From a virus, in IMG/VR virus record IMGVR_UViG_3300045988_062804: DNA of 64,000 bases, one strand, 5' to 3'. The position numbers were made by a program, and so were the translations under genes. The first letter of the stretch is position 1. Each line of letters opens with the position of its first letter. Positions 2,615-62,820 of this stretch are shown one piece after another. The notes under the pieces are model-generated. The model was not told the DNA's origin and did not search any database. It was given only the letters and a program-made list of their open reading frames with translations.

Positions 2615-3114
2615 GGGCTTGTATGGTTTTGACAGGCGATTACGAGTTAGTAAGACGTGTAGAGTTGGCACCAACTCTTTAATAATGATGCACAATTTTA
2701 AGTGGAAACACTGAAGTAAGAATGGCAGCCTAAGCTGCTGGCTTATCAGTATTTATATTGATTAAGTCGGGTTAATTGGAGAGACCTAGAAACAGAAGAG
2801 GATTGACAAACGTCATTAACCGAACGCTCTAAGAGTTAGTAAGCCGAAATCTCCACTACCTAGCTATGGGTTACAAATAGACGTTCTCCAACGTAAATGG
2901 AGTGGTGGAGCGACCGTTCGGTCAAGCCCAGTTTGGTAGTTTGTGAACAACTAAGTCGTAGCCTTACGAGGAGACGTAATTGGTGAATTAACACTCAGCT
3001 TCTTAGTAAAACTATCTACATGCTGAACTCAACAGCTGATGTAATAAAATAGAGACACACGTAATCTTATTAATGAGAGTTGTTTGGACGGCAGTTCGAT
3101 TCTGCCCAAGTCCA
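2615..3114 (+). ncRNA. ssrA: tmRNA (transfer-messenger RNA), ~500 nt
   Basis: The 5' end GGGCTTG-TATGGTTTTGACAGG resembles GGGGCUG-AUUCUGGAUUCGACGGG. The 3' end is GGACG-GCAG-TTCGATT-CTGCC-CAAGTCC-A. The acceptor GGGCTTG/CAAGTCC carries the G3:U70 alanine identity pair. Candidate tag ORF at 2704-2733: GGA AAC ACT GAA GTA AGA ATG GCA GCC TAA = GNTEVRMAA*. CCA is not encoded. Confidence 0.8.
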
Positions 3115-3141
3115 CATTGTATAACTAATCGACAAAGAATT

Positions 3142-3936: not shown

Positions 3937-4181
3937 AAAAAGTATATATTCAAATCATAGACCCTCTTAATGGCACGTGTATAAATGCGTGCCATGAGTA
4001 TCCCAGTGAGTATAATCAAGCTGTGGAAGCTACTCTTAGGTATTATAAGCTCTCTGCCAATGAAGATTATGAGGCTATGAGTGGTACTGGACGTGAACTG
4101 CCTGGAATGCCTGAATATCTACTCATACATGGGTTAGAGAAAGGTACTTCCAAGTTGGTAAATATAACTGTTGTAGGGTAA
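3933..4181 (+). CDS. hypothetical protein (82 aa)
   Basis: ATGA-coupled ORF; no motif recognised. Confidence 0.5.
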   Translation: MKKVYIQIIDPLNGTCINACHEYPSEYNQAVEATLRYYKLSANEDYEAMSGTGRELPGMPEYLLIHGLEKGTSKLVNITVVG

Positions 4182-4594
4182 TTCCTACTGCGAAACACGA
4201 AACTGACCTGATGAGTTAGACTACATAGTGCGCACTATGTAGTGACTTAAACGTGTATAAATAAAAGTTGAAACCTAGTTCATACGAATAAGAAGTGTTC
4301 GCCCACCTTCAAAGTGGGAGGATGAGGTGCAACTCCTCAATGTAATATGTAAGGAGAAAACCCTTACGTCTCTTGTTTAATTCATCTAAATGTGTAACAA
4401 TATTTTGATTAATGGTCAAGCAATACGAGAGTAGGTCGTCAGTTCCATTTCATTATTGACCTTTCACTCAGCTACAAAATCTTTCATTGCCAAGTAGCTG
4501 AGTGATTGTTTTATGAGAATGTTAAAGGATAGATTATGTAGGTGAGACACGCTATATAATTATCTCAATTAATTTATAAATTAAGAGATAAACA

Positions 4595-6397
4595 ATGGAA
4601 TTTAGTAAGAAGAAGAAAAGTCTGTACAAGACTGTATCTCCAACACAAGAGAACAACTTTGTAAAGGAGGGATTGAAGCTGTCAGCCGAGACTGTGAGTG
4701 GAAATGGTGCTAAGAAGTATAGCACTAGTAATGATGCATTTGTGGATAACTTTGCAATGATTGCAAACTTTAAGGCACCTCGTGATTATGCTGAGGTATC
4801 TAAAGATATGTATAAGTTGTGGAGTATTAATCCTAAGAAGTGTCTGCAACTTGCAGTGTATATTAGGTTGATTACTCGTGAGACTCAAATTGTTCTTCCT
4901 GATGAAACTATCACACTGGATGTTCAAAGGGGACAAGGCTTAAAGAATGAAGGTATTATGCGTATGCTATGGTTAGCAATGCATCACAAACCTACATTCA
5001 TGGCTAATATGCCTTACTTCATCGCTGCTGGTAGCTGGAAGGATGTATTTGAAATGATGAGCCTTGATTTACAATATCATGGCTGGGAAGGAAGAAAGTT
5101 GGATTGGAATTTCATGCGTAAGATTATCTTGGCTGGATTAGCTAATGGTCATACAAGTGAATTGGTAAAGAAATACCTTCCGACTATTCGTTCAATGAAA
5201 GAATGTAAAACTGTTGAATCACAAGCTCGTACAATTATCGGTCAGTATCTGGCTTCTTGCATTTATGGTAAGAAGAAGGATAAGGAATCCGATAAAGAGA
5301 CTGCGGATAGCCGTGCTGCACAACGTAGATACAGGAAACTCAAACAGAGTGGAACTGCTCATACTTGGCAGCAATTAATAAGTCAGAAGAAGTTACTCGA
5401 ACTGGACTTCAATACCATTCATGGACGCGCTTTAAGCCTATTAGTAGGCTCTAAGTTCTTGAAAAATCAGGGATTGGTAGAGAAGTATTCCAAGTGGATA
5501 AGTGGTCGCAAAGTGGCTAAATACACTGGATTCGTGTTCGAGTTGTTCCAACCACTTGGTGATAGCTATCGAACCAATAGGCTTGAAGAGTATAGAGAAC
5601 AGACTATCAATGCCCAGTTTAATGGATTAGTTGAGACTGGAAGACAGAATCTCAACCAAAACAGCAAACTATTGGTAGTTAGAGATATATCTGGTTCTAT
5701 GACCTCTAAGGCAGTTGGAACTAATATGTCTTCTTATGCTGTTGGTAAGGCAATGGCATTGTATTTCTCTGCTCTGTTGGATGGTCCATTTAAGGATGCT
5801 TATGCTACATTTAGTAGTACTTGTAAGTTCTGTAAATGGCAAGGTAAGACTCCTATTGAGAAGTGGACTAATGATACTGATGGAAACTTTGGTAATACCA
5901 ATTTATTATCAGTAGCAGATATGTTTGTCAAGCTGAGGGGTACAATGAAGATTTCTGAGAATGAGTTCCCAACAGGAGCATTATTGATTAGTGATGGTGA
6001 GTTCGACTCTGCTCGTAGCTGGAGTGGTAGTGGAGCAAATGTTACTAACTTTGAGGCATTCAGGAAGAAACTACTCAATGGTGGGTTCAGTAAAGAGTAT
6101 GTAGATAACTTTAAGTTAATCCTTTGGGATTTGCCTAATGGTTATTATGGTGGAGGTCTTCGTCCTAAGTTTGAAGACTTTGCAGATGCTCCGAACAATT
6201 TCTACATTAGTGGTTATGACCCTGCTGCTGTAGCATTCATCTTGGGAACTAAACCATTTAAGGCTACACCTAAGAACGCAACAGAGTTGTTCAATGCAGC
6301 TATGGACCAGGAACTATTGAATAGACTGGTTATCTCTGAACGAAAGGTATTCAACAAGTCTAAGAAGAATATAAACTCTAAAAGTAATAAGAAATAA
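4595..6397 (+). CDS. vWA/MIDAS protein with large N-terminal helical domain (DUF2828-like; possibly Ro60/TROVE-like)
   Basis: MIDAS motif LLVVRDISGSMTS at about aa 360, preceded by ~350 aa of helical sequence. This is the same domain order as Ro60/Rsr. The family name is recalled from memory, not searched. Confidence 0.6.
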   Translation: MEFSKKKKSLYKTVSPTQENNFVKEGLKLSAETVSGNGAKKYSTSNDAFVDNFAMIANFKAPRDYAEVSKDMYKLWSINPKKCLQLAVYIRLITRETQIVLPDETITLDVQRGQGLKNEGIMRMLWLAMHHKPTFMANMPYFIAAGSWKDVFEMMSLDLQYHGWEGRKLDWNFMRKIILAGLANGHTSELVKKYLPTIRSMKECKTVESQARTIIGQYLASCIYGKKKDKESDKETADSRAAQRRYRKLKQSGTAHTWQQLISQKKLLELDFNTIHGRALSLLVGSKFLKNQGLVEKYSKWISGRKVAKYTGFVFELFQPLGDSYRTNRLEEYREQTINAQFNGLVETGRQNLNQNSKLLVVRDISGSMTSKAVGTNMSSYAVGKAMALYFSALLDGPFKDAYATFSSTCKFCKWQGKTPIEKWTNDTDGNFGNTNLLSVADMFVKLRGTMKISENEFPTGALLISDGEFDSARSWSGSGANVTNFEAFRKKLLNGGFSKEYVDNFKLILWDLPNGYYGGGLRPKFEDFADAPNNFYISGYDPAAVAFILGTKPFKATPKNATELFNAAMDQELLNRLVISERKVFNKSKKNINSKSNKK

Positions 6398-7335: not shown

Positions 7336-7545
7336 TTATTAAATCTGACCATTCACGGGTTCGAATCCCGTGCGCGCCTCTAACATAATCCTTTGTTTAC
7401 AAGGTGGGATAGAAGCATAAGAACCAACATATTAGATGAGCAGTATTGCAAGTAAGCAGCAATCAATATGACTCTTATGTGTATGATTCCCACCTTCTTT
7501 TAACATGGCGCGCTGGTGAAGTGGATTAACACGTCAGACTAATAA
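7336..7545 (+). ncRNA. permuted tRNA-like module U1
   Basis: 7344-7378: TCTGAC-cattc-ACGGG-TTCGAAT-CCCGT-GCGCGCC. A 128-nt insert follows, closed by AAGGTGGGA/TCCCACCTT. 7507-7545: GGCGCGC-TG-GTGAAGTGGATTAACAC-GTCAGA-CTAATAA. The anticodon-type stem GTCAGA/TCTGAC and the outer helix TTATTA/TAATAA both pair. Confidence 0.55.
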
Positions 7546-7765: not shown

Positions 7766-7857
7766 AGAGGGATGCGCAAATGGTAAAGCGGCAATCGATG
7801 GATTGTAGTACAGTGTTCTAGGCGTGTACATTGAAGGTTCGATTCCTTTTCCCTCTA
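7766..7857 (+). tRNA. tRNA-like RNA (92 nt) lacking a 7-nt anticodon loop
   Basis: Acceptor AGAGGGA/TCCCTCT, D-arm CGC-AAATGGTAAA-GCG, T-arm GAAGG-TTCGATT-CCTTT. The anticodon position is CAATC-GATG-GATTG (a tetraloop), followed by an extra arm GTACA...TGTAC. Confidence 0.4.
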
Positions 7858-7888
7858 CAATTCTTTGTAATAAATTACATTTGTCAGC

Positions 7889-8817: not shown

Positions 8818-8903
8818 CGCGGATTAGAGAAGTGGTCTATCTCGCCAGTCTCATAAGCTGGAACACTCATAAGGTGTCGCAAGTTCGAATCTTGCATCCG
8901 CAA
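8818..8903 (+). tRNA. class-II-shaped tRNA with CAT anticodon (Met/Ile2-type loop, long extra arm)
   Basis: Acceptor CGCGGAT/ATCCGCA (C1:A72 mismatch), long D-loop, stem CCAGT/GCTGG, loop CTCATAA. Extra arm ACAC-TCATAAG-GTGT, T-arm GCAAG-TTCGAAT-CTTGC. Confidence 0.6.
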
Positions 8904-8918
8904 CTAACTTAATGTATT

Positions 8919-9340: not shown

Positions 9341-9412
9341 AGGCACATCTTCTAATGGTCAGGAAGCTACCCTGATAAGGTAGTAATCCCAGTTCAATTC
9401 TGGGTGTGCCTA
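9341..9412 (+). tRNA. tRNA-Ile(GAT)
   Basis: Acceptor AGGCACA/TGTGCCT, stem CTACC/GGTAG, loop CTGATAA, T-arm CCCAG-TTCAATT-CTGGG. Confidence 0.85.
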
Positions 9413-9414
9413 CA

Positions 9415-9951
9415 ATGATTACTAATGATACTAAGCTCAAGGTTATACAACTCAAACAATCTGGAATGACCTACAGTCAAATCTCTGAACAGTTAGGGAT
9501 TTCTAAAGGTAGTATATCTACTATAGTAAAGGAGGCAGGCTTAGGAGTAAGTAAACCTGTTGAAATTACCGAGGAGTTGTTAGGTAAGATTCAAGAAAGA
9601 TATAATGAGATTGGTAATATCAAAAAGGTAGCCGAGGAATTTCATATCTCTTATAGACGGCTAGCTAAAATAAAGTCTTTCAGTAGAAAGACAAAGAGTA
9701 ATTATGAATGTGTAAAAGATAGTAGAGTTAGGAAGAAACTAGTACTTGTAGAGTACAAAGGAGGTAAGTGTGAAAGATGTGGGTACAGCAAATGCATTCA
9801 TGCACTGGAGTTCCATCACCTTAACCCTTTGGAGAAAGACTTTAATATTTCTAGTTCCTCTAAACCTATAGAAGAACTAAAGAAGGAAGTTGATAAATGC
9901 CAACTTCTCTGTGCAAACTGTCATAGGGAAGTCCATCAAGAAATAACGTGA
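9415..9951 (+). CDS. HNH homing-type endonuclease with N-terminal HTH
   Basis: GGKCERCGY...LEFHHLNP...DKCQLLCANCHREVH. Start set to the ATG at 9415, because 9406 lies inside tRNA-Ile. Confidence 0.8.
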   Translation: MITNDTKLKVIQLKQSGMTYSQISEQLGISKGSISTIVKEAGLGVSKPVEITEELLGKIQERYNEIGNIKKVAEEFHISYRRLAKIKSFSRKTKSNYECVKDSRVRKKLVLVEYKGGKCERCGYSKCIHALEFHHLNPLEKDFNISSSSKPIEELKKEVDKCQLLCANCHREVHQEIT

Positions 9952-10113: not shown

Positions 10114-10197
10114 GTATGGTTAGCCAAGCGGTCGACGGCAATAGGCTGTTAACCTATCTGAGAAATCACACCGCAGGTTCGAATCCTGCACCATACG
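10114..10197 (+). tRNA. tRNA with GTT anticodon and 15-nt variable region (Asn-type loop on a class-II-like body)
   Basis: Acceptor GTATGGT/ACCATAC, D-arm GCC-AAGCGGTCGAC-GGC, stem ATAGG/CCTAT, loop CTGTTAA, then CTGAGAAATCACACC before T-arm GCAGG-TTCGAAT-CCTGC. Confidence 0.6.
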
Positions 10198-10202
10198 CAA
10201 CT

Positions 10203-11105: not shown

Positions 11106-11125
11106 CTATTTTGAGTTTAACAACA

Positions 11126-11245
11126 AGAAACCTTACAGCAATACCTATTCAGCTTTGTAAGCCGTAGGTCATGGGTTCAAGTCCCATAGGTGGATACGTC
11201 CATCTTAGCTCAGTTGGATAGAGCAACGTATTTAAAATGGTTTCT
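11126..11245 (+). ncRNA. permuted tRNA-like module U3 with ACAGCAA box
   Basis: AGAAACC-TT-ACAGCAA ... ATGGG-TTCAAGT-CCCAT-AGGTGGA-tacg-TCCATCT-TA-GCTC-AGTTGGATA-GAGC-A-ACGTA-TTTAAAA ... GGTTTCT. The acceptor is closed by a UACG tetraloop. Confidence 0.6.
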
Positions 11246-11285
11246 GAACCCACATCTATTGTTAATACAGTAATGTGGGTTATTT

Positions 11286-14603: not shown

Positions 14604-14686
14604 GCCGTCTTCGCATAGTGGTCGATTGCACCTGACTTGTAATCAGGTTCCGCAAGGACACGTCCGTTCGAATCGGACAGGCGGCT
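14604..14686 (+). tRNA. class-II-shaped tRNA with TGT anticodon (only Thr decoder seen)
   Basis: Acceptor GCCGTCT/AGGCGGC, D-arm GCA-TAGTGGTCGAT-TGC, stem CCTGA/TCAGG, loop CTTGTAA. Extra arm TCC-GCAA-GGA, T-arm GTCCG-TTCGAAT-CGGAC. Confidence 0.65.
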
Positions 14687-14691
14687 CAAAT

Positions 14692-17448: not shown

Positions 17449-17751
17449 ATGAAGGCAATGAAGGATAAGAAGAAATTCGGAGGATGTTCCTTAACATCTA
17501 AGAATCGTAGCTGTAAGAAATTCGGCTGGAGTTATGATAAGGAAACAAGAAGAATCTGGAGGATTGAAGCTAAACGTATGGCTCATAAAGTACTTATGCA
17601 TCTACCTATCAGTAGGGAAGAGATTCAGAAAGCGTGGAGTAATCCATATATGAACCTTTCTGAACTTGGTGTTCCTTATGTGTGGGATGGCGTAGGCTAT
17701 TATGAAAGATGGGTTGAGCAAGTGTACAAAAAATTAAATAACGTAACATGA
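17449..17751 (+). CDS. hypothetical basic W/R-rich protein
   Basis: Start moved to the ATG at 17449, because 17395 lies inside tRNA-Gln; FGWSYDKETRRIWRIEAKRMAHKVL. Confidence 0.5.
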   Translation: MKAMKDKKKFGGCSLTSKNRSCKKFGWSYDKETRRIWRIEAKRMAHKVLMHLPISREEIQKAWSNPYMNLSELGVPYVWDGVGYYERWVEQVYKKLNNVT

Positions 17752-17909
17752 TTTATGCAAGAGTAATTCTAGTGGTGCTTATTATACTAATATTAGTATA
17801 CTATGCTATGGTGGTTGCACACCTCTCTGGTATTATATACCTTACGAGTAGGAAAGTGACCTTCGCCAAACTGTGTATTCCATTTTATTATTGGGTACAT
17901 CAGGATTAA
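17748..17909 (+). CDS. small membrane protein (53 aa)
   Basis: ATGA-coupled; MIYARVILVVLIILILVYYAMVVAHLSGIIYL. Confidence 0.45.
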   Translation: MIYARVILVVLIILILVYYAMVVAHLSGIIYLTSRKVTFAKLCIPFYYWVHQD

Positions 17910-17940
17910 TGATAATGTTTTAATGTAAATAAGTAGAAAA

Positions 17941-19164
17941 ATGAATCAACCTAAAGTAAGTAAAAGTTCAATCTTTGCTATTTTGGCAGGAGTAATCGTA
18001 GTACTGTTAGTCTGCATGGCAGGTTCACTCTTTGAAGATGCTGATAAGTCTAAGAACTATGTTTGTCAGATGCCTATGTCTGGTAAATACGTTGTATGGA
18101 CAGATGGTGGTCTTCAGTGGCAAGGCTTTGGTAACAAGCACGAGTATTTCAAAACTTCTCAGATAGAGTTCGTTGACTGGAAAGAAGTCAGTGAAGGTAA
18201 TTATATTGCATCTGGTGAGAACCCAGCAGCTTCACTTACCTTTAATGATAAGGGTAAGGGATTTATTATTGGTTCTTTCCGAGTTGTTATGCCAAATGAC
18301 GATGCTAATATGAAGAAAATTCAGCAGGACTTCGGTTCAGAGAAGGCATTGATAGCAAACTTAATTAAACCTACTCTATACAAGGTTGTAACATCTTGTG
18401 GTCCTCTGATGTCATCATTGGAATCTGTATCTGAAACAAGAACTGACCTTATTGCTTACATCACTGACCAGCTTAATAACGGAGTATACAAAACTGTTGT
18501 AGTTCGTGATTCTGTTACTAATGAAATTACTGGTGAGAAGGAATTGAGAGCTAAGGCACAGATTGTTGCTGATGCTAACTCTCCAAGTGGTTATAAACGT
18601 CAAGAAACATCACCGTTCAGTCAGTATGGTATTACCTGTGGATTGGTATCTATTTTGGATATTAAATATGATGGAGCTACTCAATCTCAGATTGATGCCC
18701 AAAAGCAAGCTAACTTAGCCGTAATAACTTCTAAGACTAAATCTTTGGAAGCAATTCAAAGAACTGTTCAGATTACTGAAGAGGGTAGAGCAGCAGCTGA
18801 GAGAGCTAAATGGGAACAAGAGAAAGAGAAGGCTGTAGCAGTTACTAAGGCTCAGCAAGAGTTTGAAGTAGCTGAACTAGAAGCTAAGAAAGCAAAGCAA
18901 GTTGCTTTGAAGGTTCAAGCTGAAGGTGAAGCTAAGGCAGCAGCTAATAGAGCATTAGTATCAGCAGGTTTAACTCCAGCTGAAAGAGCTGAGTGGGATT
19001 ATAAGACAGCTGTAGGAGTTGCACAAGCTCTAGCAGAATCTAAAGTGTCTTGGGTTCCATCTGTGATGTTTGGAGGAGGCAGTTCAAGTAATTCAGCTAT
19101 GGATGCTGTAGGCTTGAAGATGTTACTGGATATTACTAAGTCTTTGGAAAAGACAAGTAAATAA
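17941..19164 (+). CDS. SPFH/band-7 (flotillin/HflK-like) membrane protein
   Basis: N-terminal TM helix, central globular part, and an Ala/Glu/Lys-rich coiled coil (AQQEFEVAELEAKKAKQVALKVQAEGEAKAAANRA). Confidence 0.55.
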   Translation: MNQPKVSKSSIFAILAGVIVVLLVCMAGSLFEDADKSKNYVCQMPMSGKYVVWTDGGLQWQGFGNKHEYFKTSQIEFVDWKEVSEGNYIASGENPAASLTFNDKGKGFIIGSFRVVMPNDDANMKKIQQDFGSEKALIANLIKPTLYKVVTSCGPLMSSLESVSETRTDLIAYITDQLNNGVYKTVVVRDSVTNEITGEKELRAKAQIVADANSPSGYKRQETSPFSQYGITCGLVSILDIKYDGATQSQIDAQKQANLAVITSKTKSLEAIQRTVQITEEGRAAAERAKWEQEKEKAVAVTKAQQEFEVAELEAKKAKQVALKVQAEGEAKAAANRALVSAGLTPAERAEWDYKTAVGVAQALAESKVSWVPSVMFGGGSSSNSAMDAVGLKMLLDITKSLEKTSK

Positions 19165-19170
19165 AAACAT

Positions 19171-19277
19171 AAATACGCAATGAGGAGGGCAGGTGTGTAG
19201 AGTTCTACAACATACTGAGGGTTTGGAGTCTGAGACGGTAAGAACAAACTGGGTAAAGACTAAGTAATTGCGTATTT
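19171..19277 (+). ncRNA. helix-closed structured RNA upstream of the split tRNA
   Basis: AAATACGCAAT (19171-19181) pairs with ATTGCGTATTT (19267-19277), 11 bp. Confidence 0.4.
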
Positions 19278-19321
19278 ACGGACCTATAGCTCAGCCAGGT
19301 CAGAGCAGCTAATTATGAGTC

Positions 19322-20015
19322 AGATAGGGACGTATCCCCTCAAGCTTATACCTTGTAGAAAGGGTAGTCGGTCGCACGTGGGTTCAAGCCCCACCGTCCC
19401 TACAACTTCTGGATTGAATTTTTAGTTTTGCACCAAAACATTTGGTATTATGATTATTTTCATATATATTTGTATATGAATTACAATGATTATAATACAC
19501 AGAAGTTAAGAGGTTTAAAGCGCAAATTAGAGCTAGTAAAATCTCGTGGTGGTAAATGTGAACTATGCGGCTATGATAGAAACATAGCTGTTCTAGAATT
19601 TCACCATATCAATCCAGATGAGAAAGAGTTTCAGTTAGATATGAGACATTTATCTAATACAAGTCTAGAAAGGCTTAAAGAGGAAGCAGATAAATGTCAA
19701 CTTCTATGCGCTAATTGTCATAGAGAAGTACATAACCCTCACTTGGGAATGGACGAAGTTGAAGATTTAGTTAATACTGAAGCTAAAGATAAGACGTCTT
19801 TTGAAAATATGACTGGGTCTGTATGCCCAGTATGCGGCAAAAGATTTCCTAAATCTAAGGGTAAGATATACTGTTCTAAGGAATGCAGAGATGCTGATAA
19901 ACATTATCCTTCTCTAGAAGAAGTAAATGAGCAGTACGAAATACTTAAGAATTGGGAGAAAGTTGCTCAGCATTTTGGATTAACTCGCAGAGTTATTCAA
20001 GGAATAAGAAAGAAA
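19322..20015 (+). mobile_element. intron-like or mobile insertion carrying a tRNA-like minihelix and an HNH endonuclease gene
   Basis: Bounded by the 10-bp inverted repeat above; contains 19326-19402 and ORF 19476..20024. Confidence 0.4.
19326..19402 (+). ncRNA. tRNA-like element inside the insertion (acceptor + T-arm canonical, rest atypical)
   Basis: AGGGACG ... GTGGG-TTCAAGC-CCCAC-CGTCCCT-A. No clear D-arm; 8-nt loop TGTAGAAA on stem TACCT/GGGTA. Confidence 0.4.
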
Positions 20016-20024
20016 GACTCATAA
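19476..20024 (+). CDS. HNH homing-type endonuclease
   Basis: GGKCELCGY...LEFHHINP...DKCQLLCANCHREVH; paralogue of 9415..9951. Start set to the ATG at 19476. Confidence 0.8.
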   Translation: MNYNDYNTQKLRGLKRKLELVKSRGGKCELCGYDRNIAVLEFHHINPDEKEFQLDMRHLSNTSLERLKEEADKCQLLCANCHREVHNPHLGMDEVEDLVNTEAKDKTSFENMTGSVCPVCGKRFPKSKGKIYCSKECRDADKHYPSLEEVNEQYEILKNWEKVAQHFGLTRRVIQGIRKKDS

Positions 20025-20080
20025 TCAGGAGGTCGGGGGTTCAAAGCCCTCTAGGTCCACTTCTTTAAAAACTATCGCTT

Positions 20081-20455
20081 ATGAAACATTTATTACTAAT
20101 ACTAATGTTTATTCCTTTAGCTTTATATGGTCAACATAATGTTACGGCAACGTATTATCATGCAGGACCAAAACATGGTTTATCATGGATTACGGCTAGT
20201 GGAAATAGAATTAGTGTTAAGAAACTAAATGCTGGTAAGTTAAGATGGGTGGCGCTATCACATAACTTATTAAAGCATTATGATTATGGAGATACTATTA
20301 TAGTAGTATCTAATAACCCTAAGCTTAGAGGTAAATGGGTAGTAATGGACAAGATGCACAAGAGACACTATAATAAGATAGATTTCTTGACTCCATCTGG
20401 AAAGAATTTAGGAATGTTAAAACCAACTAAAGTGAAGATAAGAAAGAAGAAGTAA
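20081..20455 (+). CDS. secreted RlpA/3D-domain (double-psi beta-barrel) protein, lytic-transglycosylase-like
   Basis: Signal peptide MKHLLLILMFIPLALYGQ, then ATYYHAGPKHGLSWITASGNRI...GDTIIVVS...GKWVVMDKM. Confidence 0.5.
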   Translation: MKHLLLILMFIPLALYGQHNVTATYYHAGPKHGLSWITASGNRISVKKLNAGKLRWVALSHNLLKHYDYGDTIIVVSNNPKLRGKWVVMDKMHKRHYNKIDFLTPSGKNLGMLKPTKVKIRKKK

Positions 20456-61434: not shown

Positions 61435-62820
61435 ATGCAATTAACTCAATCACCAAAATTTAACAGAAATTATGCTGCTAAGATTGTAGAGATTAAGGAT
61501 TTTATTAATCATCCTAATCCGAAGTGTGAGAGATTAAAGTGTTGTACAATTGATGGTTATTCTATCGCTGTAAGTATTGATACCAATCCTGGTACATATA
61601 TTTACTTCCCTATAGAATGTGCTATTGATGATAGATTCTTATCTGCCAACAATCTCTTTAGAGATAAGAATAAGAACTTTGATAAGGAACAGGCAGGATT
61701 CTTTGAAGATAATTGTAGAGTGAAGATTATCAAGCTACAAGGTTATCCTTCTGAAGGATTTATTACTCCTATTACATACCTATACAACTGGCTTACTTTA
61801 ATTGGTAAGAAGAGTGAGATAGTACATAAGGTTGCTCCAGGTACTGAGTTTGACTCTGTAGATGGAGAAATCATATGTAGGAAATATGTTCCCAAAGTTG
61901 CTTATACTCTTGGTCAGCCCAGAGAGGGAGGTAAGATAAAGAGAAACCTAAAGAAAGTAAAGAAAGTAATTGATACTCAATTTAGGTTTCATTATGATAC
62001 TACGCTCATTAAGAAGTGTCCATCAGCTGTTCATCCTAACGATATTATAAGCATTACTGCTAAGGTTCATGGAACCTCTGGTATATCTGCTTATGTATTG
62101 TGTGAAAGACCTAAGAAATGGTATGAGAAAGTATTCGAGTTCCTAACTCGTAAAGAGATAGATGATACTCGATATGATTATCTATGGTCTTCTCGTTCAG
62201 TAGTTAAGAATCCATACTACAATGGAACTACTAACGGTGGTTTCTATGGAGTGGACGTATGGAAGTATGCAGATGATGTTGTTAGACCTCATCTACAGAA
62301 AGGAATGACAGCTTACTACGAGATAGTAGGTTATCTGCCAAATGGTGGTGCAATTCAGAAGTTAGGTGGTAAAGCATTTGATTATGGGTTTGAACCTCCG
62401 AGAAGTGCAGATAGGTATAAGTATGGTGAGAACTTTGGAATACAAATCTATCGTTTAACCTATACCAACCCCGACGGACGTGTATATGAGTTTAGTGCAA
62501 GACAGGTGCAACAATGGTGTGCCAAAGAAGGCTTAAAGCCTGTAGAAGAATATTACTATGGCTATGCTAAAGACTTATATCCAGACTTAGATATTGCTGA
62601 GCACTGGAATGAGAACTTCCTACAGAAGTTAGCTAGTGATAAGAATTTCTTCATGGAGTGTGAATCTCCAACTTGTAACAATAAAGTACCTCACGAGGGT
62701 ATTGTTATTAAGATTGAAAACTCCCTATCCGAAGCCTATAAGCTGAAGTGTATTAAATTCCTGGAAGGAGAATCTAAATCACTGGATAAGGGTGAAGTGG
62801 ACATTGAAACTGAATCATAA
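61435..62820 (+). CDS. RNA ligase (nucleotidyltransferase with KxHG motif I, N-terminal extra domain)
   Basis: ISITAKVHGTSG (motif I), YYEIVGY, HEGIVIKIE. Confidence 0.6.
   Translation: MQLTQSPKFNRNYAAKIVEIKDFINHPNPKCERLKCCTIDGYSIAVSIDTNPGTYIYFPIECAIDDRFLSANNLFRDKNKNFDKEQAGFFEDNCRVKIIKLQGYPSEGFITPITYLYNWLTLIGKKSEIVHKVAPGTEFDSVDGEIICRKYVPKVAYTLGQPREGGKIKRNLKKVKKVIDTQFRFHYDTTLIKKCPSAVHPNDIISITAKVHGTSGISAYVLCERPKKWYEKVFEFLTRKEIDDTRYDYLWSSRSVVKNPYYNGTTNGGFYGVDVWKYADDVVRPHLQKGMTAYYEIVGYLPNGGAIQKLGGKAFDYGFEPPRSADRYKYGENFGIQIYRLTYTNPDGRVYEFSARQVQQWCAKEGLKPVEEYYYGYAKDLYPDLDIAEHWNENFLQKLASDKNFFMECESPTCNNKVPHEGIVIKIENSLSEAYKLKCIKFLEGESKSLDKGEVDIETES

Follow-up and report, generated by a model that had tools for sequence, protein, structure and literature searches.

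We describe a phage tRNA gene with a CAU anticodon, tRNA(CAU), that is split by a 705-nucleotide (nt) insertion in a 64,000-nt stretch of viral DNA (IMG/VR record IMGVR_UViG_3300045988_062804; the whole stretch is hereafter called the window). On comparative evidence the insertion is a mobile cassette and not a recognisable intron: it carries an HNH homing-endonuclease gene together with a second, rewired tRNA gene, and it quite probably invaded the tRNA(CAU) gene site-specifically between tRNA positions 31 and 32 (31|32), killing the tRNA. An earlier note, made from the sequence alone, had set three readings side by side: an HNH-bearing intron, a mobile cassette that killed the tRNA, and a non-permuted relative of permuted tRNA-like modules found elsewhere in the window. 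Polymorphism at the site, varied tRNA backbones, chimeric flanks, decay and damaged anticodon stems speak for the second. To that note the present analysis adds a probable replacement tRNA, compensatory changes in the helix formed by the two junctions, and a widespread family of rewired tRNAs to which the cargo belongs.

An endonuclease cassette in a tRNA(CAU) gene

The outer tRNA can be assembled from two parts. The 5' part (19280-19306) reads GGACCTA-TA-GCTC-AGCCAGGTCA-GAGC and forms a perfect D arm, the 3' part (20035-20059) consists of the T arm GGGGG-TTCAAAG-CCCTC followed by TAGGTCC-A, and the acceptor strands of the two pair at 7/7 positions. ARAGORN, run with introns allowed, joined the two halves, and when the 780-nt RNA was folded in silico (z=-4.8), its minimum-free-energy and centroid structures alike had the acceptor stem, D arm, T arm, junction helix and inner tRNA-like element. 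The ARAGORN call itself, a tRNA-His(atg) with a 685-nt intron that relies on a local hairpin (GCTAA-TTATGAG-TCAGA), was rejected because the intact alleles have a CAU loop and the 96-nt product would be absurdly long.

Scanning for the 5' half directly followed by a CAU loop identified 40 viral contigs with an uninterrupted tRNA of the form GGACCTATAGCTCAG...GAGCA-(A/G)CTGA-CTCATAA-TCAG(G/A)-AGGTC...TAGGTCCA, in which AGGTC is followed by GGGGG TTCAAAG CCCTC TAGGTCC A. These alleles, with the complete acceptor pairing, bear out the proposal of the earlier note that the two parts belong to one tRNA, and the comparison with insertion-free relatives that it had suggested defines the empty site, since 14 of the 40 contigs have flanks identical to those of the window. 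Against one relative, L023 (L-numbers denote related phage contigs or loci compared with the window), the window shows 99.6% and 97.8% identity on either side of a clean indel of exactly 705 nt, which refines the ~700 nt first estimated. Intact alleles at the same flanks indicate that the insertion is recent and that its target was an ordinary tRNA gene. L212 and L008 retain native sequence on the 5' side of the stem as far as position 31, and comparison with them places the insertion site at 31|32, the border of anticodon stem and loop; the window's own 5' half equals the intact alleles except at position 30 and at the polymorphic position 27. One locus occurs in three states, empty, with a window-type cassette (L009) and with a sister cassette (L204, L206), and it thus displays the presence/absence polymorphism at a single site in otherwise near-identical genomes by which homing endonucleases are recognised.

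The open reading frame (ORF) of the cassette matches PHROG 2255 (HNH, E=7e-26), and Pfam HNH at 20.7 bits against a cut-off of 21.4. Its motif, CxxC...HH...N...CxxCH...H, is followed by a second four-cysteine ribbon and a helix-turn-helix. The residues C28, C31, H43, H44, N61, C78, C81, H82 and H86 are invariant among 14 diverged members, giving the beta-beta-alpha-metal motif with zinc-binding cysteines, and the earlier assignment as HNH therefore stands. The family has at least 850 members, none of them named, and a PDB sequence search with the endonuclease returned merely weak similarity to the HNH of McrA and of a group II maturase. With a ratio of nonsynonymous to synonymous substitution (dN/dS) of 0.06-0.12, at saturated synonymous sites, the ORF is by this measure under purifying selection. 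Its promoter motif, TTTG-N20-TATATTTG (of the TTTG-N20-TAnnTTTG type, with 5 matches in the window against 1.8 expected), ends 3 nt 5' of the ATG and is kept in L012, L212 and L213; L011, L016 and L219 have no spacer, and their ORF starts 3-7 nt past the cargo tRNA. With or without the spacer, the HNH message would be almost leaderless.

Cassettes with HNH genes 96-100% identical sit in tRNA backbones with the acceptor pairs GGACCTA/TAGGTCC (window), GGGCCTA/TAGGCCC (L010) and GGGCCTC/GAGGCCC (L008) and in a chimeric GGGCCTG/TAGGTCC, while distant homologues (56-80% identical) occupy GGTCCCG/CGGGACC (L011), GCTCCTA/TGGGAGC (L212), GGACCTC/GAGGTCC (L218) and GGTCCTA/TGGGACC (L219, L224-235), with the stop codon at the same place of the loop in all these distant backbones. 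In all, seven or more distinct tRNA backbones harbour the cassette. Its movement between alleles with co-conversion of flanks is recorded by the outer tRNAs of L002 and L010, which are chimeras, by the native 5' strand that L008 keeps, and by a broken linkage between positions 27 and 43 (described below). The ORF stop TAA forms the final three bases of the CTCATAA loop, and the ORF ends in ...TCA TAA, TCA TAG or TCG TAA even where no tRNA lies downstream (TCATAG in L016, TCGTAA in L015), so the cassette itself has a TCATAA microhomology with the CTCATAA loop. At the very site where L059 has an intact tRNA, L016 has the cassette. A scan for intact backbones of the L008 and L010 types found, among the matches listed, only the very common GGGCCT... 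tRNA(CAU) family. Scanning viral contigs for non-window junction types gave just 4 chance matches, in coding sequence, and a scan for further window-type junctions gained only truncated copies.

We read the cassette as having four parts: the 9-nt arm with its 4-nt linker, the gene of a rewired tRNA-Ile(UAU), a promoter of its own, and the HNH ORF, whose native end (...TCA TAA) would merge with the CTCATAA loop on insertion. In a mixed infection, the endonuclease would cleave cassette-free tRNA(CAU) genes; repair would then copy the donor cassette and co-convert flanking tRNA sequence to a variable extent, leaving the interrupted tRNA unrestored, as a decaying pseudogene. The phage would tolerate the loss of this tRNA thanks to redundancy in its tRNA array; a further probable reason is that AUA, the codon the disrupted gene served, is also read by the cargo tRNA(UAU).

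The nearest precedent is SegB of phage T4, a free-standing homing endonuclease in a phage tRNA cluster (PMC2330249). In both, an endonuclease gene lies among tRNA genes, is missing from related phages, and has a conserved tRNA-gene sequence as its target, predicted in the case of the cassette; it spreads, or would spread, by break repair that takes adjacent tRNA genes along. However, SegB is a GIY-YIG enzyme that lies between tRNA genes and targets T-arm sequence, whereas the cassette encodes an HNH enzyme, lies inside an anticodon arm, most likely destroys the gene and carries a tRNA of presumably equivalent decoding capacity. Our literature search found no account of an endonuclease cassette splitting a tRNA in crAss-like phages, an absence that is not proof of novelty.

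Features of the split tRNA gene and its cassette (positions in the window)
Feature	Position	Strand	Remarks
Split outer tRNA(CAU), whole	19280-20059	+	780 nt including the insertion
Insertion	19313-20017	+	705 nt
Outer tRNA(CAU), positions 1-31	19280..19312	+	acceptor 5' strand, D arm, anticodon-stem 5' strand with G30>A
Junction helix, 5' arm TTATGAGTC	19313..19321	+	complementary to the anticodon loop and to the cassette's final 2 nt
Linker, 4 nt	19322..19325	+	AGAT; GAAT in L218/L219
Cargo: rewired (D-arm-permuted) tRNA-Ile-like gene, anticodon UAU	19326..19402	+	Rfam 30.4 bits; covariation in 71 homologues
Spacer with Bacteroidetes-type promoter motif	19403..19475	+	motif at 19441-19472
HNH homing-endonuclease ORF, 182 aa	19476..20024	+	HNH domain, Zn ribbon, C-terminal helix-turn-helix
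Junction helix, 3' arm GACTCATAA	20016..20024	+	final ORF codons and stop; anticodon loop CTCATAA = 20018-20024
Outer tRNA(CAU), positions 32-73	20018..20059	+	anticodon loop, 3' stem strand, variable loop, T arm, acceptor 3' strand, A73

Fate of the interrupted tRNA and the junction helix

Comparison of alleles indicates that the split tRNA is most likely dead and not restored. A scan with group I and group II covariance models, as the earlier note had proposed, gave no match: no Intron_gpI core (P3-P9) was found at the gathering score, nor at E<=10 over 19150-20150, and Rfam returned no intron or ribozyme family around the split tRNA at E<=10. Weak tmRNA matches in the region proved to be merely acceptor and T-arm parts and were discarded. 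The allowed group I boundaries, (T29, A20015), (A30, G20016) and (A31, A20017), include none with both U(-1) and an intron-final G. Room for a group I core is insufficient, as the non-coding part comprises 165 nt (19311-19475), of which 77 nt are the tRNA-like gene and ~32 nt the promoter motif. For group II, we found no GUGYG...AY ends, domain V, reverse-transcriptase ORF or Rfam match; the insertion begins TTATGAG (or AATTATG), and its ORF encodes an HNH domain, Zn ribbon and helix-turn-helix alone.

Group I introns with endonuclease ORFs occur in the anticodon loops of bacterial and phage tRNAs, and the cassette resembles them in placing a homing-endonuclease ORF in an insertion at the anticodon region; it differs in that ribozyme core, U(-1)/G(omega) and non-coding room for a core are all absent, and in that its ORF continues into the 3' exon. 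A different insertion, of 811 nt, lies in L011 (4630-5527) after ACTT in the anticodon loop of a tRNA-Leu(UAA)-like gene; it encodes a different HNH protein, has ~250 nt of non-coding RNA downstream, and we take it for a probable classic group I intron, although Rfam found no such core in it at E<=0.05, a reminder that the sensitivity of Rfam to ORF-bearing introns is limited. The two halves, held by a helix that extends the anticodon stem, also recall archaeal split tRNAs of the Nanoarchaeum type with their bulge-helix-bulge (two 3-nt bulges with 4 bp between them, at site 37/38). By contrast, the helix of the cassette is a continuous 9-10 bp without bulges and includes the anticodon loop, the insertion lies at 31|32, and the halves are on one transcript. 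Bacteroidota and their phages are not known to have a splicing endonuclease.

Decay of the outer tRNA points the same way. In L204-206, which lie at the window's locus (the HNH proteins of L204 and L206 are 80% identical to that of the window), the 5' half ends at G24 and the 3' half starts at A35, so that ten tRNA nucleotides (positions 25-34, including C34) are gone and no splicing could restore that tRNA. L011 has lost positions 27-31; only the 3' half is present in L012, L013 and L213, only 5' remnants in L014, L189, L202, L207 and L215, and L015, L016 and L208-211 have the cassette with neither half. The native anticodon stem is defective in every allele with the junction helix, by A30.C40 (window-type), A31.A39 (L218) or A29.A41 (L219-type), and in L010 it is nearly gone, with 1/5 pairs. 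Moreover, the pair 27.43 is A.G (23) or G.A (17) in the 40 intact alleles, with G.G and A.A absent, while four of nine interrupted alleles of the same tRNA have G.G or A.A. Decay, stem mismatches and this broken linkage are the marks, if indirect ones, of a pseudogene.

The two junctions form an inverted repeat, CTAATTATGAGTC (19309-19321) against GACTCATAATCAG (20016-20028), that is complementary at 12/13 positions with a 10-bp perfect core. The earlier note was right to flag it, for the helix covaries; the 3' junction holds, as stated there, a CUCAUAA loop to which the 5' arm is complementary. Its 9-bp core (19313-19321 with 20016-20024) is paired in 9/9 distinct alleles, whose differences comprise two compensatory and two wobble changes. 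L218 and L219/L224-235 have TTATGAATT/AATTCATAA in place of the window's arms, with two base pairs altered on both strands, and L003 has two changes that preserve wobble pairs. The altered 3' positions lie in the penultimate HNH codon (GAC versus AAT), outside the tRNA, which means that what the 5' arm tracks is the end of the cassette and not the stem of the ancestral tRNA. On this covariation the helix is a lineage-specific, maintained feature of this cassette lineage. L212 and L011, with both halves present, have no junction helix, and in L204-206 a local inverted copy of tRNA positions 3-12 takes its place. That left junction (1305-1350, corresponding to the site at window 19280) is a 10-bp perfect inverted repeat, ACCTATAGCT...AGCTATAGGT, followed by TTTAT; by its pairing it sequesters the dead tRNA's 5' acceptor strand, and it could form a terminator-like hairpin.

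Our reading, a cassette that kills its target tRNA, must be weighed against three others. A true tRNA intron of an undescribed, protein-dependent kind seems to us distinctly unlikely. The helix would then present two splice sites, one on each strand and separated by 7 bp, for cleavage by an endonuclease of host or phage, and a phage RNA ligase would join the exons, ...GAGCA(A/G)CT(A/G)A to CTCATAATCAG..., into a working tRNA(CAU). Several points favour this account and weigh against ours: the case against splicing is built from sequence comparison; exact loss of 19311-20015 from the window-type allele would regenerate the native tRNA sequence, and precise excision is possible in L212 too; the helix, present in the minimum-free-energy fold, covaries as an intron-exon pairing would be expected to do; the window encodes an RNA ligase-like protein (61435-62820, PHROG 968, E=6e-42); and the zeta group of crAss-like phages has many introns and "unknown forms of gene fragmentation" (PMC7886860). 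The intron account nevertheless finds neither ribozyme match nor conforming boundaries nor bulge-helix-bulge, and a mature anticodon stem would be mismatched in all helix-bearing alleles. The sister cassette at the same locus cannot be spliced into a tRNA, tRNA halves are often lost, and the helix is absent from L212, the allele that could be restored most cleanly. A functional non-decoding tRNA-like scaffold, kin of the permuted YrlA/Y-RNA-like modules and with the long helix replacing the anticodon arm by design, is the least probable of the alternatives, and we regard it as very improbable. Six such modules and a Ro-like RNA-binding protein are encoded in the window, and the split gene has a tRNA-shaped fold with an extended helix. 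However, YrlA-type modules have a closed acceptor hairpin, T and D arms, and termini in a long helix, and the topology of the split gene is the opposite, with the acceptor end open and the helix closed by the insertion. The split tRNA also has no CTTACAGCAA motif and no YrlA match, its halves decay in relatives, and the ancestral allele at the site is an ordinary cloverleaf tRNA with a CUCAUAA loop, recently interrupted.

The remaining alternative concerns the helix, which might be a functionless scar made at the DNA level: the broken left end would have primed on the complementary arm and copied the loop in inverted form (snap-back or template switching), with complementarity kept by repeated templated regeneration and not by selection. 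We consider this unlikely too, if less so than an intron. It would account for the window, whose 5' arm plus TCAG is the reverse complement of tRNA positions 28-38, and AGCTATAGGT, the reverse complement of positions 3-12 at the left junction of L204-206, shows that inverted copies recur at left junctions. The TCATAA microhomology, retained by the cassette's right end even without a tRNA, fits as well. Yet simple snap-back on an intact tRNA arm fails for L218/L219, whose arm is complementary to the penultimate HNH codon AAT and not to the native tRNA stem. That arm has the same length as in the window (9 nt) and a similar 4-nt linker, which points to one origin followed by two compensatory changes. 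Moreover, the arms lie 700 bp apart, and arms so far apart are poor substrates for quasi-palindrome correction.

We favour, with low confidence, a role of the junction helix in RNA over templated regeneration in DNA. Our best guess is that the 9-bp helix serves as an RNA clamp by which the two halves would fold into a tRNA-shaped handle in read-through transcripts of the array. More speculatively still, and as the least supported step of the proposal, the clamp might let RNase P and RNase Z process the cargo tRNA and the HNH mRNA in a defined way. A clamp leaves the helix-free L212 unexplained, which counts against this part of our reading. The compensatory helix poses a concrete puzzle in RNA processing.

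A rewired tRNA-Ile as cargo

The inner element, described in the earlier note as a tRNA-like minihelix, is present as stated but is more than a minihelix: it appears to be a complete, covarying and rewired tRNA with the anticodon UAU. It is the sole Rfam hit of the region (tRNA, gathering score 29), in an alignment from which the D arm is missing and whose variable region has 18 nt inserted, and ARAGORN makes no call on it. The element departs from the canonical cloverleaf order (acceptor, D, anticodon, variable, T). Its acceptor, anticodon and T stems covary, its 7-nt loop has U33 and A37, and A73 is present. Across 71 distinct homologues, 93% of cells are paired, 16/21 pairs show compensatory changes, and the covariation score is 0.69 against 0.17 for shuffles. 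Covarying pairs include all 7 of the acceptor stem, 3 of the anticodon stem, 4 of the T stem and 1 of a small 3-bp stem. This small stem was assigned to 11-13/37-39, which is 100% paired and covaries (C-G, G-C, U-A), and the RNAalifold register 8-12/37-41 was dropped.

Further details suggest a tRNA core. T8 and the A after the small stem are invariant, a downstream GG is nearly so (G45 invariant, G46 in at least 90%), and the nucleotide next to the invariant A on its 3' side covaries with the one that precedes the T stem (A-U 45, G-C 21), a pattern matching U8-A14, G18/G19 and the R15-Y48 Levitt pair. The order is best read as 8-9, 22-25, 26, 27-43, a linker, 10-13, 14-21, ~46-48 and the T arm. 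Segments 10-21 and 22-45 would thus be swapped, with the D-stem 5' strand and D-loop placed 3' of the anticodon arm, and judged from known tRNA structure each new junction would join residues that are adjacent in the canonical core. D-armless mitochondrial tRNAs and allo-tRNAs (PMC7609411) likewise depart from the cloverleaf and keep the acceptor, anticodon and T arms. In contrast to these, the cargo has lost neither its D stem nor a GG segment resembling the D loop but has them 3' of the anticodon arm; it has U8, A14, a covarying R15-Y48-like pair and a standard 7/5 acceptor/T-stem, and its family is borne by phages.

The family extends far beyond the cassette. A degenerate pattern found the element in at least 120 viral contigs from many metagenomes and habitats, with an HNH homologue <=400 nt downstream at only ~7 of 114 new loci (L236-L349). 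It also occurs in 82 cultured Streptomyces phage records; the one Streptomyces copy that we read, from the BE-cluster phage Jay2Jay (L350, KM652554, 75238-75311), has the anticodon GAU. The Streptomyces phage records listed have no tRNA-Ile annotation at the match, most being unannotated there, and two records of EGole have a tRNA-Leu feature under it. Among 185,579 bacterial and archaeal species genomes there were 31 matches, nearly all on contigs of metagenome-assembled genomes. We read the element as a rewired tRNA-Ile from a widespread, unannotated phage family, with a predicted role in translation. Its connectivity is non-canonical and its decoding function putative, a further point against the full proposal. 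We found no literature account of such a rewired tRNA, which again does not prove novelty.

The anticodon loop of the cargo is CUUAUA(C/A/U) across the lineages examined that have a canonical tRNA-Ile(UAU) (L012, L013, L212, L217) or the rewired form (window, L015, L016, L213, L215, L218, L219). L230 has another variant, again with the anticodon UAU, and in L011 an intact CAU tRNA takes the place of the cargo. For the intact outer tRNA, the best full-length match in the listed sample of E. coli genomes is a PGAP-annotated tRNA-Ile with anticodon CAU, and it has C4-G69 and C5-G68, which we take to be determinants for TilS (lysidine synthetase). Against this assignment, it is 75% identical to E. 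coli metT and 69% to ileX. On balance, we lean towards tRNA-Ile2, the lysidine type, by a narrow margin over elongator tRNA-Met. Decoding of AUA by UAU tRNAs is established (PMC3575796). In the window's ORFs, 26% of Ile codons are ATA; in the HNH gene, 4/6 are. If the outer tRNA is Ile2, the cassette destroys one AUA reader and supplies another.

Taken together, these observations allow a bolder proposal that we hold only tentatively: a "self-compensating" selfish element, in which the endonuclease would destroy a lysidine-dependent, AUA-reading tRNA gene, a cargo from an unrecognised functional tRNA-Ile family with swapped 10-21/22-45 segments and an L-shaped core (U8-A14, R15-Y48, G18/G19 elbow) would decode AUA, and the covarying helix would act as a processing signal of the composite transcript. 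Homing endonucleases usually spare their host by residing in self-splicing introns, in inteins or between genes; a cassette inside a structural RNA gene that carries a substitute would be a third route to harmlessness. The rewired tRNA-Ile family escapes standard tRNA finders, and if its members are charged and decode, the tRNA fold tolerates a rewired backbone and phage tRNA repertoires are under-counted. The rewired tRNA may also bear on phage escape from host tRNA-targeting defences or from dependence on host TilS.

Phage context and neighbouring features

The window derives from a large gut phage of the crAss-like kind, in which one SPFH gene shares 78% identity with those of Kehishuvirus and PhiCrAssBcn phages. 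Related viral contigs measure 90-280 kb (most 140-190 kb), and their HNH genes use TGA or TAG as sense codons, which fits the intron-rich group of large crAss-like genomes of 145-192 kb (PMC7886860). Across 7.6-25.7 kb of the window lies an array of 34 tRNA genes, with a transfer-messenger RNA (tmRNA) gene upstream. Next to the split tRNA, the relative L023, otherwise 99% identical, lacks a 1.6-kb segment (17458-19076) that takes in most of the SPFH-family ORF 17941-19164; by this alignment the segment is another indel polymorphism. A second endonuclease ORF (9406-9951), with an N-terminal helix-turn-helix and an HNH domain, begins within the 3' end of a tRNA-Ile(GAU) gene (9341-9413), so more than one homing-endonuclease gene adjoins Ile tRNAs in the array. 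The tmRNA match spans 503 nt (2615-3117) against a model of 374 positions, which suggests an insertion inside this gene as well, and L011 has a comparable tmRNA of 538 nt.

The RNA ligase-like ORF encodes 461 aa and matches PHROG 968 ("RNA ligase") over its full length, with no Pfam match and no PDB sequence match; tRNA repair is a possible role of the protein, as is, more speculatively, the ligation of tRNA halves. Near the other end of the window, a RAGATH-34 RNA (4179-4281, 73.9 bits) lies just 5' of a 600-aa ORF (4595-6397) that matches PHROG 850 ("RNA-binding protein") and Pfam DUF7788/DUF2828; its product is possibly a Ro60-like partner of the permuted tRNA-like modules. The six circularly permuted modules have T arms at 7355, 10687, 11171, 12669, 13367 and 14486 on the + strand. 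Each (for example 11115-11262) has a T arm, an acceptor stem closed by a short loop, a D arm and a long outer helix, with weak matches to Rfam YrlA (Y-RNA-like) and a conserved CTTACAGCAA/CTAACAGCAA motif that follows the outer helix's 5' strand.

Several tRNAs called by ARAGORN are odd, with extra arms or unusual loops (7766-7858, 8818-8904, 10114-10198, 14604-14687). They include one of 93 nt with a 2-nt "anticodon", a tRNA-Met(CAU) of 87 nt with a C1.A72 mismatch, a tRNA-Asn of 85 nt and a tRNA-Thr of 84 nt. In the tRNA-array region of L012, a Pistol self-cleaving ribozyme occurs at 590-659 with 61 bits, above its gathering score of 34.5.

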